64,000 bases of DNA, taken from Clostridia bacterium. Lineage in GTDB: Bacteria; Bacillota; Clostridia; RUG12999. The position numbers were made by a program, and so were the translations under genes. The notes under the pieces were generated by a model. The model made no database searches. It was given only the letters and a program-made list of their open reading frames with translations, and was not told the DNA's origin. The stretch lies in assembly GCA_045633565.1 (NCBI GenBank), contig JAZQYO010000024.1, positions 1,395-65,394 on the forward strand. Reading direction: 5' to 3'. Positions 16,214 to 21,705 of the stretch are shown here, in pieces (within the stretch, counting starts at the first letter, position 1; every line of letters begins with the position of its first letter).

Positions 16214-16267
16214 GTCGTAATTTGTCGATAAAAAATTGTTGCAAAATGTAAAATAAAATGTTATAAT
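16214..16267 (+). promoter_or_regulatory. conserved operator-like box plus sigma-A promoter, copy 1 (paralog of 21262..21315)
   Basis: GTCGTAATTTGTCGATAAAAAATTG, then TTGCAA (16239–16244), a 17-nt spacer and TATAAT (16262–16267). It is about 80% identical over roughly 55 nt to the copy at 21262. Confidence 0.6.
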
Positions 16268-16270
16268 AAA

Positions 16271-16483
16271 TTTGCTACAAAAAGTCAATATAGAAGGGAT
16301 TTGATAACACCAAGGGATTGGTATATCCATTTTTAATATTGTATACATTGGTTAGAAACTGCTAAAAACGTAGGCTCCACCGGTGTATGCGATGTGTTTA
16401 ACATATCCTTTCTTCGGACTTTTTGTAGCAAAAAAGGGAGCTATGCGTTTTATGTGCGTCAGCTCCGGCCGACGCACTTTTTT
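16271..16483 (+). promoter_or_regulatory. structured leader / candidate sRNA or attenuator, copy 1
   Basis: The 5' strand UUUGCUACAAAAAG (16271–16284) is perfectly complementary to CUUUUUGUAGCAAA (16419–16432). The helix extends inward (AGAAGGGAU / AUCCUUUCU). It is followed by GGAGCUAUGCGUUUU (16437–16451) and terminator GUGCGUC-N10-GACGCAC-UUUUUU (16454–16483). A 29-codon uORF (MRFMCVSS..., 16443–16532) overlaps the terminator. Confidence 0.45.
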
Positions 16484-16553
16484 AATATTCCGAAAACCGG
16501 AATGTCGAAAATCGCCATTCCCTACAATTTAATTAAATGATTGGAGAAAGATT

Positions 16554-16643
16554 ATGGATAAATATAAAGAAATGTATTATATTTTATTTAATGCTATCAC
16601 CGAGGCAAATAAAATCTTACAGGAGGCTCAAAAGAAAGTCTAA
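16554..16643 (+). CDS. small hypothetical helical protein, 29 aa (paralog of 21545..21667)
   Basis: GGAGAAAG RBS, then ATG. Hand translation gives MDKYKEMYYILFNAITEANKILQEAQKKV. It is below the ORF-track size cut-off. It is followed by a terminator and has a 40-aa paralog with 23 of the first 29 residues identical. Confidence 0.45.
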   Translation: MDKYKEMYYILFNAITEANKILQEAQKKV

Positions 16644-16669
16644 GAAATTTATATTTCAAACAAATAACT

Positions 16670-16696
16670 AAAACCCGACCAATGGTCGGGTTTTTT
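16670..16696. terminator. bidirectional intrinsic terminator (small ORF on plus strand, phosphoribosyltransferase on minus strand)
   Basis: aaaacccgacc-aatg-ggtcgggtttttt. A-tract upstream, T-tract downstream. Confidence 0.75.
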
Positions 16697-16733
16697 CATT
16701 AATTTTTCATTTTGCATTCTACATTCTGCATTA

Positions 16734-17282
16734 TTATTTAACGCTTCCGTCAGCGTTAAATAAGGGCAGGGGTTCAAGCGCAATGATGTCGGGTCTGTCT
16801 ATTGCATCGCCTTCGGCAAGAATTGTCATTTTGCCGGCAGTAATTCCGCCAACCTCTTCCACCAGATATTCAATGGCACGAAGCGATTCGCCTGTGCTTA
16901 TAACATCGTCAACAATCAGCACTTTTTTGCCTTTCATTTTTGCAATTTCATCAGCACCAAGGCAAAGTGTCTGTTCCTTTTCGGTGGAAATGGATTTCAC
17001 CTTGACCGTCACTATATCTTTCATATAAAGCTTGAACGCTTTTCTTGCAACAACATACGGTTTTCCCGACTGGCGCGACATTTCATGAGCAAGCGGAATT
17101 CCCTTTGATTCTGCGGTAATAATAACATCAAAATCAGGTGCTTTTTGGAGCAATAGTCCGGCCGCTTTTTCAGTCAGTTCAACGTCGCCGAAAATAACAA
17201 AACCGGCTATGTATAAATCGTCAGTAACTCTGCAAATGGGCAAATCTCTTTCAAGACCTGCTATCTTCATTCTATGATACAT
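16734..17282 (-). CDS. type I phosphoribosyltransferase family protein (purine/xanthine-adenine PRTase-like)
   Basis: PRPP-binding motif VLIVDDVISTGESL. Start chosen at MYHRMKIAG because AAAGGA lies 9 nt upstream. The track start at 17300 has no RBS. Confidence 0.7.
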   Translation of the reverse strand: MYHRMKIAGLERDLPICRVTDDLYIAGFVIFGDVELTEKAAGLLLQKAPDFDVIITAESKGIPLAHEMSRQSGKPYVVARKAFKLYMKDIVTVKVKSISTEKEQTLCLGADEIAKMKGKKVLIVDDVISTGESLRAIEYLVEEVGGITAGKMTILAEGDAIDRPDIIALEPLPLFNADGSVK

Positions 17283-17414
17283 TTTTATCATTCCTTTCAT
17301 AGTTTCATCTTATCATTTTAGTTCTCAAAAGTCAACATAAATCCGTCATATTTGTGACATAATAAAAAGTAATTTTACTTTTTTTGTTCACAGTAACGAA
17401 ATTACTATATAATA

Positions 17415-17468
17415 TTGACTTATAGGAAAAAAAGTAGTATAATTTACTATGTACGGGCATGTCCGTAC
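17415..17468 (+). promoter_or_regulatory. PFOR promoter (TTGACT-17-TATAAT) followed by 18-bp near-palindrome GTACGGGCATGTCCGTAC at the transcript start
   Basis: -35 at 17415–17420, -10 at 17438–17443, palindrome at 17451–17468. Upstream there are tandem AATT(T)TACT repeats and a TTGTGAC...GTTCACA pair. Confidence 0.5.
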
Positions 17469-17517
17469 ACTAGTATTGTTTTTATTTTATTTTATATTAC
17501 TTTAGGAGGTTGAATTT

Positions 17518-21054: not shown

Positions 21055-21068
21055 TTAAACCATATACA

Positions 21069-21100
21069 AAAACCACGGTGATTTTCACCGTGGTTTTTTA
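21069..21100 (+). terminator. rho-independent terminator after PFOR
   Basis: aaaaaccacggtg-atttt-caccgtggtttttta. Confidence 0.85.
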
Positions 21101-21113
21101 TTTGTGAAACAGT

Positions 21114-21167
21114 CAAGGTTCCGGAGCACCGGCCGTAATCTTTGATTGCGATAGCGGGTCGGGTTCT
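21114..21167 (-). repeat. 53–54 nt intergenic repeat element, copy A (inverted relative to copy B at 35705..35757)
   Basis: The reverse complement reads AGAACCCGACCC-N5-CGCAATCAAAGATT-N12-CCGGAACCTTG. All three blocks (12, 14 and 11 nt) are identical to copy B. Confidence 0.7.
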
Positions 21168-21261
21168 AATTTTATTAATCTGTAGGGGCGCCCGAACCGG
21201 GACGATGAAGGCATCGTCCCCTACAATAATTCTGCATCAATTTCTGTGCGTCCGTTTCAGT

Positions 21262-21315
21262 GTCGTAATTTGTCGACAAAAAATTGTTGCAAAATGTAAA
21301 TTTTGGTGTTATAAT
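21262..21315 (+). promoter_or_regulatory. conserved operator-like box plus sigma-A promoter, copy 2
   Basis: GTCGTAATTTGTCGACAAAAAATTG contains the perfect 12-bp palindrome TTTGTCGACAAA (21268–21279). TTGCAA (21287–21292), 17-nt spacer, TATAAT (21310–21315). Confidence 0.6.
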
Positions 21316-21318
21316 AAT

Positions 21319-21473
21319 CTTGCTAAACAAATTACATATTTCTTTTAGGCATGTGTTTTGCTTATGGCAAAAACGCAAGCTCTATTTACATGCCTTGAAG
21401 AAAGTGTCTGTAATTTGTTTAGCGACTTGGAGCTATGCGTTTTTCGTGCGTAGCCTTGCGCTACGCATTTTTT
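21319..21473 (+). promoter_or_regulatory. structured leader / candidate sRNA or attenuator, copy 2
   Basis: CUUGCUAAACAAAUUAC (21319–21335) pairs with GUAAUUUGUUUAGC (21410–21423), with compensatory changes relative to copy 1. Inner helix AGGCAUGU/ACAUGCCU. GGAGCUAUGCGUUUUU (21429–21444). Terminator UGCGUAGC-CUUGC-GCUACGCA-UUUUUUU (21446–21473). A 34-codon uORF (MRFSCVAL..., 21435–21539) overlaps the terminator and ends inside the RBS of the next ORF. Confidence 0.45.
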
Positions 21474-21544
21474 TATTACCTGATGTGCACTATAAGGTTT
21501 AAAGGCGTAGATGCTCTAAAAATAATATTAAAGGAGTAAAACTT

Positions 21545-21667
21545 ATGGACAAATATCAGGAAATGTATTATGTTTTATTTAATGCAATAACAGAGGCAAC
21601 CAAAATACTGGAAGAAGCACAGAAAAAAGCGGAAGAAATATACATATCGACAAATGAGGAAAACTAA
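21545..21667 (+). CDS. small hypothetical helical protein, 40 aa (paralog of 16554..16643)
   Basis: AAGGAG RBS. Hand translation gives MDKYQEMYYVLFNAITEATKILEEAQKKAEEIYISTNEEN. Followed by a terminator hairpin. Confidence 0.45.
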   Translation: MDKYQEMYYVLFNAITEATKILEEAQKKAEEIYISTNEEN

Positions 21668-21673
21668 AAAATC

Positions 21674-21705
21674 AAGGTGGCTGATGTTAGCCACCTTAAT
21701 TTTGT
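21674..21705. terminator. bidirectional intrinsic terminator
   Basis: aaggtggc-tgatgtta-gccacctt followed by aattttgtttt. It overlaps the stop codon of the minus-strand 58-aa ORF. Confidence 0.7.

Follow-up and report, generated by a model that had tools for sequence, protein, structure and literature searches.

The window analysed here is a stretch of 64,000 nucleotides from a Clostridia bacterium (GTDB lineage Bacteria; Bacillota; Clostridia; RUG12999; GenBank assembly GCA_045633565.1, contig JAZQYO010000024.1, positions 1,395 to 65,394 of the forward strand). Its genes are of the housekeeping type, and include murC, recJ, relA, topoisomerase genes, pckA and feoB. Between them lie two intergenic modules on the + strand, module 1 at 16213-16700 and module 2 at 21261-21705. 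Each contains, in the same order, a promoter block, a rod-like leader, an identical GGAGCUAUGCGUUUU box, a leader terminator, a ribosome-binding site (RBS), a small open reading frame (ORF) and a final terminator. A first-pass annotation, made from the letters alone, had listed six such features for the pair, and all six were found where it had placed them in both modules. It had overlooked that the box is complementary to the rod tip as well as to the 5′ strand of the terminator, that the module 1 product is truncated, and that the protein family is very large.

The modules are 77% identical over approximately 500 nt in a pairwise alignment, and the identity is patchy: the leader interiors are unrelated in sequence, and the ORFs are alike at the protein level. 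A consensus scan placed the terminators of the genes upstream at 16179-16205 for module 1 and 21068-21098 for module 2. Together with the modules' own parts, these terminators make each module an insulated transcription unit. No further copy of the ORF was found when the window and the related loci were searched.

To compare leaders beyond the window, a set of 16 was assembled from the two window modules and 14 further copies on related metagenomic contigs (loci are designated by L numbers). The further copies came from contig look-ups for ten members of the protein family and from a genome scan with the protein alignment; genome and metagenome scans with this alignment gave at least 8 and at least 6 loci respectively.

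A 39-nt block, GTCGTAATTTGTCGAYAAAAAATTGTTGCAAAATGTAAA, occurs exactly twice in the 64 kb, at 16214 and 21262, where shuffled sequences give an expectation of 0. The promoter block is present in 14 of the 16 leaders, and part of the spacer between the -35 and -10 elements (TTGCAAAATGTAAAAT) is conserved with it. Transcription of module 1 would start near 16274. Upstream of the -35 element are tandem repeats, TGTCGnA and TGTCGAy (or TGACGAy), spaced 10 bp apart and followed by an A-tract, again in 14 of 16 promoters. The pattern TGTCRNAAWTTGWCGA occurs at these promoters only, in the window and the loci. The core of the Spo0A box (0A-box) is TGTCGAA, with G2, C4 and G5 critical (PMC3485338). 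Repeats of the tandem pair match this core at 5-7 of 7 positions; they resemble Spo0A boxes, and are a candidate lead to Spo0A-type control. The promoter block and the box are near-identical between the window copies although synonymous sites of the two ORFs are saturated, which points to strong constraint or local gene conversion.

The folded stretch of module 1 has a minimum free energy of -81.4 kcal/mol (z -8.6 against dinucleotide shuffles) and that of module 2 -58.4 kcal/mol (z -7.5), and none of 200 shuffles was as stable in either case. The rod alone gives -64.1 kcal/mol (z -8.0) in module 1 and -44.0 kcal/mol (z -7.9) in module 2. All 16 rods, which are 111-187 nt long, fold far better than their shuffles (z -6.4 to -11.1). 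The long-range helix that the first-pass annotation saw closing the leader is present, but the description was understated, as the whole leader is a rod hairpin. In all 16 leaders the basal helix (P1) starts at a conserved UUGCGAC, the tip holds AAAAACGCnnnCUCY, and the rod is followed by a linker of 1-7 nt, the box and then the terminator. There are two length classes. Long forms carry a side hairpin, GGGnnnnUAUnYCC, and a three-way junction, with AUUUUUA conserved directly after the side hairpin; short forms, such as module 2, are plain rods. Sequence relatedness among the leader interiors is confined to P1, the tip and the long-form side hairpin. P1 has 16 perfect pairs and covaries, 11 of the 16 pairs having changes on both sides. 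MAFFT alignments of full leaders were of insufficient quality in the variable arms to be used with RNAalifold, and the leaders were therefore aligned by hand on anchors and padded with N.

In all but one of the 16 leaders the fold of the + strand is more stable than that of the - strand, by 20 kcal/mol in module 1, and the stems include G-U pairs. The structure therefore acts as RNA and not as DNA, and on the same grounds a DNA cruciform or inverted-repeat element was rejected. A 6S-like RNA was also rejected, as there is no central bubble and no match to the 6S model. No leader, in the window or the 14 loci, matched Rfam at the gathering threshold, and at E up to 10 both modules gave just chance matches to terminators and hairpins resembling miRNA precursors. 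A conserved ligand-binding core common to all leaders was not found. One module lies beside an S-adenosylmethionine (SAM) riboswitch upstream of metK (L024 1910-2183); its detection confirms that Rfam scanning is effective for these contigs.

The first-pass annotation had suggested a covariance-model search built from the leaders. A model of the leader 3′ part matched module 1 with 76.5 bits, and in 201 kb of sequence (the window and the loci) its matches were at these modules only; none lay before other genes or at the loci of longer relatives of the protein. The leader and the ORF are thus strictly linked, and the architecture recurs in the 14 further copies.

The box between rod and terminator, here called box B, has the consensus GGAGyy-nGCG-UUUU. 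The sequence GGAGCTATGCGTTTT is identical in both modules, at 16437 and 21429. Matches to its pattern with up to three mismatches are no more frequent in the window than chance predicts; what chance does not account for is that the two boxes are exactly identical and occupy equivalent positions in their modules. The terminators that follow were folded, with their alternatives, in 15 leaders, L001 being left out as it carries an insertion. All have stems rich in G and C (-14 to -18 kcal/mol) and a run of 5-7 U residues after them. In all 15, box B was also predicted to form an antiterminator hairpin by pairing with the terminator's 5′ strand and its loop (-8 to -16 kcal/mol), a fold that excludes the terminator. 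In module 1 the terminator has -16.1 kcal/mol and the antiterminator -14.1 kcal/mol; the corresponding values for module 2 are -13.8 and -10.1 kcal/mol. Pairing of box B with the terminator 5′ strand is stronger than that of shuffled B, which reached the observed energy in no more than 20 of 500 trials for every leader. The insertion in L001 (3650-3928) is of approximately 265 nt, has inverted-repeat ends of approximately 20 nt, lies between box B and the terminator, and looks like a miniature inverted-repeat transposable element (MITE). In a strain variant of the window (L009, L010), T21468C changes a G-U pair of the module 2 leader terminator to G-C, consistent with selection on the stem.

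The second partner of box B is segment A (AAAAACGCnnnCUCY, 15 nt), the conserved sequence at the rod tip, with which it can pair over 14 bp. Segment A is the best partner of B within its own leader in 16 of 16 (-15.6 to -21.8 kcal/mol), an energy that shuffled B matched against the leader in no more than 4 of 500 trials. Of the 223 A:B cells in a register-anchored alignment, 214 (96%) form standard pairs, and when A segments were reassigned among loci none of 10,000 permutations reached the observed pairing. Pair counting in alignment A6 gave 95.4% standard pairs, as against 80.2% when shuffled and 35-50% with partners slid. Both sides have changed in 7 of the 14 A:B pairs of this alignment, and its covariation score of 0.495 (0.194 when shuffled) was reached in 0 of 500 shuffles. 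Compensatory changes include C-G to U-A at b5:a11 in five leaders, G-C to A-U at b11:a6 in L003, C-G to U-A at b10:a7 in L029 and L033, and U-A to G-C at b8:a9 in L024. As judged from these comparisons, the leader is an RNA family supported by covariation and absent from Rfam.

An upstream ORF beginning at an AUG inside box B had also been claimed, and this is unsupported. The AUG lies 2 nt past GGAG and is present in just 8 of 16 boxes; other boxes have UUG or GUG at this position, and three have no start codon at all. The two frames in the window have nothing in common beyond the box and terminator, which are constrained as RNA. The coding reading of the box was rejected, since neither the AUG nor the downstream frame is conserved and the AUG is only 2 nt from GGAG.

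A search with the 40-residue product of module 2 gave 57 clusters of 36-40 residues with start and stop conserved, so homologues of the kind that the first-pass annotation had called for exist. The consensus of the family is MDxYKEMYxILFNAITEATKILEEAQKKAEEIFIS. In the 15 copies for which DNA was available, 14, 8 and 30 of 34 sites vary at the first, second and third codon positions respectively, and the mean pN/pS (the ratio of nonsynonymous to synonymous variation) is 0.14, indicating purifying selection. When 1.84 billion representatives were searched with a profile, 1,462 clusters matched (E up to 0.001), and a word-indexed search gave 1,727 clusters at 90% identity (E up to 1e-5), so that the family comprises at least 1,462 to at least 1,727 clusters, these being lower bounds. 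Nearly all are of 36-100 residues, and their source names are just 'hypothetical protein', from Oscillospiraceae and Ethanoligenens. Neither single proteins nor the family alignment gave a significant match in Pfam-A, NCBIfam, PHROGs or PDB sequences, where only sub-threshold noise was seen, and a full-text literature search for the peptide motif returned no papers. The number of clusters, the pN/pS value and the recurrence of the leader plan in 14 further copies together bear out the earlier view that this is a real, regulated small-protein family and not a pair of chance ORFs. Recent duplication of dead DNA is excluded by the saturation of synonymous sites between the window copies, the codon-position pattern and the pN/pS value.

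AlphaFold2 with the family alignment predicts a single helix over residues 2-38 (mean predicted local distance difference test score, pLDDT, 94). Hydrophobic residues read from the sequence have a heptad spacing of 3-4 (Y4, Y8, L11, I15, A18, L22, A25, A29, I32). The helix is charged and amphipathic and has no hydrophobic span, which fits the first-pass view that the product is not a type I toxin. The mini-protein is likely to work through oligomerisation or through contact with a partner protein.

Longer relatives have 47-60 residues, and the insertion would make the protein a helix-loop-helix. At five loci (L002, L004, L005, L006 and L007) a longer relative lies 94-128 nt from a divergent gene for a 56-90-residue XRE HTH_3 protein, and at four near-identical loci (L017-L020) one adjoins a gene for an Arc-like ribbon-helix-helix protein. 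These arrangements suggest that the longer relative and the XRE or Arc-like gene form a two-gene regulatory cassette. At L016 (690-1022), from a Joint Genome Institute (JGI) metagenome, a 63-residue relative is preceded by a promoter of its own and by a long leader, the end of which, immediately 5′ of the RBS, is a hairpin resembling a terminator. This leader is unrelated in sequence to that of modules 1 and 2, and attenuation may be a recurring theme in the family. Every confirmed family copy examined has either the leader of modules 1 and 2 or a divergent XRE or Arc repressor gene, and such tight control suggests that the product is a potent regulatory protein.

We propose that the leader is an attenuator with terminator, antiterminator and anti-antiterminator states that gates read-through into the mini-protein gene, whether its segments meet in cis or in trans, and consider the chances of this to be slightly better than even. 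A strong sigma-A-type promoter with an operator-like repeat would drive a structured leader of 160-215 nt ending in an intrinsic terminator, and the mini-protein gene would be transcribed only when RNA polymerase reads through that terminator. Pairing of box B with the terminator 5′ strand would give the antiterminator hairpin, and hence read-through and protein. Pairing of box B with segment A, which the rod would display in and beside its apical hairpin loop, would act as an anti-antiterminator, so that the terminator forms and leader RNA alone is made. The spacer between leader terminator and start codon is 15-112 nt, and in six copies it is just 15-33 nt, leaving no room for a promoter of the ORF's own; the ORF in these copies depends on read-through. 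What the sequences show directly is the three complementarities, the covariation of P1 and of A:B, a plan common to 16 copies, and selection on the coding sequence. We infer that the helices alternate in vivo and that termination is regulated; the functional readings given here rest on sequence analysis of uncultured organisms.

Several points weigh against the attenuator. The covariation comes from 16 sequences of one clade (effective number about 5), whose relatedness inflates the counts; A:B was aligned by hand, and the P1 register was picked to maximise pairing. The antiterminator has little true covariation, as the terminator 5′ strand is almost invariant. The sequence of the rod interior varies freely and occurs in short and long forms, arguing against a ligand pocket, and no sensor was identified. 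Finally, the whole rod, approximately 33-60 bp, separates segment A at its tip from box B, which starts only 1-7 nt past its base, a distance that allows no contact in cis in the short forms unless the rod bends or melts. The three-way junction of the long forms might let the apical arm fold back; in the short forms the rod might bend or melt, or segment A might act in trans.

Action in trans is an alternative in its own right, possible although we regard it as rather improbable. The terminated leader would be a stable small RNA acting on nascent transcripts of the same or a paralogous copy: its apical loop (UAAAAAC) would kiss the U-rich antiterminator loop, the contact would extend to the 14-bp A:B duplex, and termination would be forced. 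Such a mechanism would produce negative feedback, or would limit mini-protein synthesis to a short pulse once the promoter is activated. The logic is that of a plasmid countertranscript with the regulator on the sense strand, as segments A and B are both encoded on the same strand and not on opposite strands. The predicted folds are suited to such a contact. The A-run lies in a 7-nt apical hairpin loop with an unpaired probability of about 0.9 and is complementary to the U-run of box B, itself in the antiterminator loop, within a full complementarity of 14 bp. Contact in cis is sterically difficult in short forms, the window copies have identical B with which both A segments pair, so that cross-talk is possible, and the strong promoter, base-paired 5′ end and terminator would be expected to yield abundant stable RNA. 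On the other side, the covariation of A with its own B in individual copies (L024, L033 and L001) fits action in cis at least as well, and acting while polymerase crosses approximately 30 nt needs a high RNA concentration or a pause. Speculatively, and with a similarly low expectation, such a sense-encoded 'self-countertranscript' could form a circuit: rod RNA would build up, its apical loop would attack nascent antiterminators at its own and paralogous loci, and the several copies would make up one feedback or pulse circuit in which activation of the promoter, possibly by Spo0A, would release a burst of coiled-coil mini-protein.

It is slightly less likely still that the rod and terminator are an independent small-RNA gene, with A:B as a pseudoknot, the ORF expressed by constitutive leak-through and no switch. 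The near-consensus promoter and strong terminator would suit such a gene, the rods are the best-supported structural feature, and the leader has been kept both in module 1, despite the truncated ORF, and in the first leader of L003, before a decayed ORF. This reading leaves unexplained, however, the complementarity of the terminator 5′ strand to box B above that of shuffled B in all 15 leaders tested, the absence from the 201 kb of any leader separate from an ORF locus, and the start of the ORF 15-33 nt after the terminator.

A metabolite or ion riboswitch, in which the rod would be a P1-closed aptamer and box B with the terminator its expression platform, is very improbable. A leader closed by P1 is indeed followed by a terminator/antiterminator platform, and the long-form side hairpin and subsequent AUUUUUA are conserved. 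Against this, no Rfam family matched, even with E values of up to 10 allowed, almost all of the interior is paired and its sequence differs freely between copies, and short forms lack the side hairpin entirely. Moreover the 16 perfect pairs of P1 do not overlap the platform, so ligand-dependent stabilisation of P1 could not be transmitted to it. A type I toxin-antitoxin system or a selfish or mobile repeat arising from recent duplication, which small, tightly controlled ORFs in several copies per genome with short palindromic repeats nearby might suggest, is largely refuted by the charged, amphipathic product without a hydrophobic span, the saturation of synonymous sites while the protein is conserved, the syntenic positions of both modules in a related species (L038 for module 1, L035 for module 2), the lack of relatives in phage, plasmid and viral-contig collections beyond one weak phage match, and the housekeeping context.

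A terminator-based attenuator before a small regulatory protein is of a known kind; the RNA family, the rod-tip anti-antiterminator and the protein family are uncatalogued. The trp-TRAP, pyr-PyrR and T-box leaders are terminator/antiterminator/anti-antiterminator leaders of Firmicutes. The L20-controlled infC-rpmI-rplT leader of Bacillus subtilis, of approximately 200 nt, likewise switches between terminator and antiterminator (PMC1865079). The leaders described here share with these attenuators a length of approximately 200 nt between promoter and ORF, a terminator 5′ strand that can pair with an upstream segment, and a third segment that can capture the upstream one. They differ in having no Rfam leader match and no recognisable TRAP triplets, T-box or specifier loop, or rRNA mimicry. 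The candidate anti-antiterminator partner is at the tip of a rod of 110-190 nt, far from the hinge in both sequence and space, and the regulated gene encodes a 36-40-residue protein of unknown function.

In pT181, pIP501 and pAMbeta1, plasmid replication genes are controlled by antisense-RNA transcription attenuation involving kissing loops. The resemblance to these countertranscripts lies in a hairpin loop complementary to a loop of the nascent leader, and in a longer duplex that would block an antiterminator-like structure and so allow a terminator upstream of the ORF. Here, however, the complementary segment is on the same strand and in the same transcript, upstream of its target, and the loci are chromosomal, in several diverged copies. 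As in riboswitches, a long-range helix closes the 5′ leader and a terminator-based platform follows, but there is no conserved unpaired core, only a near-continuous duplex of free sequence in two length classes. A rod of 110-190 nt with a strong promoter, whose sequence is free while pairing is kept, is also reminiscent of 6S RNA and rod-shaped small RNAs; unlike 6S RNA, the rod has no large central bubble, is always fused to the box, terminator and ORF, and occurs in several copies per genome.

SinI with SinR, Sda and the Spo0E family are small helical regulators that are Spo0A-controlled or paired with XRE-type repressors. The mini-proteins are likewise very small and helical, their promoter repeats resemble 0A-boxes, and longer relatives lie divergently beside XRE HTH_3 or Arc-like genes. 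No sequence similarity to these regulators was detected with Pfam or NCBIfam, and the XRE gene is divergent, in contrast to the co-directional sinI-sinR pair.

If the proposed mechanism holds, an anti-antiterminator at a rod tip raises the question of how distant RNA segments, or separate molecules, communicate during transcription, and a self-countertranscript would be a form of RNA control that is not known for genes on chromosomes. Should read-through be constitutive, the finding would be of less importance. The proteins themselves, single helices or helix-loop-helices of 36-60 residues in at least 1,700 clusters, belong to Oscillospiraceae-type Clostridia of gut and rumen, and most go undetected by annotation pipelines. 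A possible developmental link, to Spo0A-type control in uncultured anaerobes, is suggested by the tandem boxes that resemble operators. The positions of the parts of both modules are collected in Table 1.

Table 1. Features of the two modules, in window coordinates
Module	Feature	Position	Strand	Remarks
1	Tandem direct repeats TGTCGTA-ATT-TGTCGAT and A-tract	16213..16235	+	Directly 5′ of -35, operator-like; exact repeat in both modules
1	Promoter TTGCAA, 17 nt, TG-n-TATAAT	16239..16267	+	Consensus scan, 10/12 matches plus TG
1	Leader rod, long form	16271..16432	+	P1 (16271-16286 with 16417-16432), side hairpin, apical arm
1	Segment A (AAAAACGUAGGCUCC)	16364..16378	+	Rod tip; complementary to box B, -18.0 kcal/mol
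1	Box B (GGAGCUAUGCGUUUU)	16437..16451	+	Putative hinge; can pair with A or terminator 5′ strand
1	Leader terminator GUGCGUC...GACGCAC and U6	16454..16483	+	5′ strand and loop can also pair with box B
1	Palindromic repeat, 3′ half (…GGAAUG…CAUUCCCUACAAU)	16499..16528	+	In terminator-RBS spacer
1	RBS GGAG	16543-16546	+	5′ of ORF 16554-16643
1	ORF, 29 residues (MDKYKEMYYILFNAITEANKILQEAQKKV, then stop)	16554-16643	+	TAA at conserved Glu30 codon
1	Final terminator, bidirectional	16670..16700	+	Common to convergent phosphoribosyltransferase gene
2	Tandem repeats TGTCGTA-ATT-TGTCGAC and A-tract	21261..21283	+	Exact repeat in both modules
2	Promoter TTGCAA, 17 nt, TG-n-TATAAT	21287..21315	+	Consensus scan
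2	Leader rod, short form without side hairpin	21320..21425	+	Orthologue L035 has same rod
2	Segment A (AAAAACGCAAGCUCU)	21369..21383	+	Duplex with box B, -19.7 kcal/mol
2	Box B (GGAGCUAUGCGUUUU)	21429..21443	+	Identical to module 1 box
2	Leader terminator (GUGCGUAGC...GCUACGCAU and U7)	21446..21475	+	Fold and consensus scan
2	RBS GGAG	21533-21536	+	5′ of ORF 21545-21667
2	ORF, 40 residues (MDKYQEMYYVLFNAITEATKILEEAQKKAEEIYISTNEEN)	21545-21667	+	Identical protein P0001 on 6 contigs
2	Final terminator, bidirectional	21674..21703	+	Common to convergent DUF6472 gene

The 29-residue ORF that had been described for module 1 is present, but is cut short by an in-frame TAA, which replaces the family-invariant Glu30. 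The codons beyond it (16644-16664) still read EIYISNK and are followed by a stop at 16665-16667. The orthologous ORF in L038 is an intact one of 36 residues, flanked on one side by an HtrA-like gene and on the other by phosphoribosyltransferase and PFOR genes in convergent orientation. In the strain variant L009, G16605A causes A18T at a family-invariant Ala of the module 1 ORF. The ORF of module 1 may be decaying while its leader stays intact. In L003 the whole module is tandemly duplicated (3450-3700 and 3760-4135), with the first leader before a decayed ORF (VPDYKIIFFSICFHLIS, ending in a stop) and the second before an intact 49-residue ORF starting with GTG.

Neighbouring genes are not conserved among the copies; those upstream include PFOR, AraC-family, Na/Pi cotransporter, metK, Big_14 domain, gpsA and queA genes. 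In every case non-coding DNA of 310-580 nt precedes the unit, and the gene that follows it is convergent.

A palindromic repeat, TGTAGGG...CCCTACAA, has a full copy in the window at 21181-21226, just upstream of the module 2 promoter. Full copies are also found in the spacer between terminator and RBS in L022, L026 and L032, where module 1 has the 3′ half only. The repeat is probably a passenger, and looks like a repetitive extragenic palindromic (REP) or MITE-type sequence. About half of the modules have UGCUCC or UGCUCU with an A-run 15-25 nt upstream of the Shine-Dalgarno (SD) sequence, for example L012, L029, L033, L034, L038 and the window at 21513-21518. The motif is predicted to form a weak anti-SD hairpin of about -5 kcal/mol, and a second, translational layer of control is possible.

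Elsewhere in the window, on the - strand at 46811-46886, is a Gut-1 RNA (RF01706), a known motif of unknown function, which scored 72 bits against a gathering score of 50. Two tRNA genes, at 47103-47173 and 47183-47271 on the same strand, lie just upstream of it.

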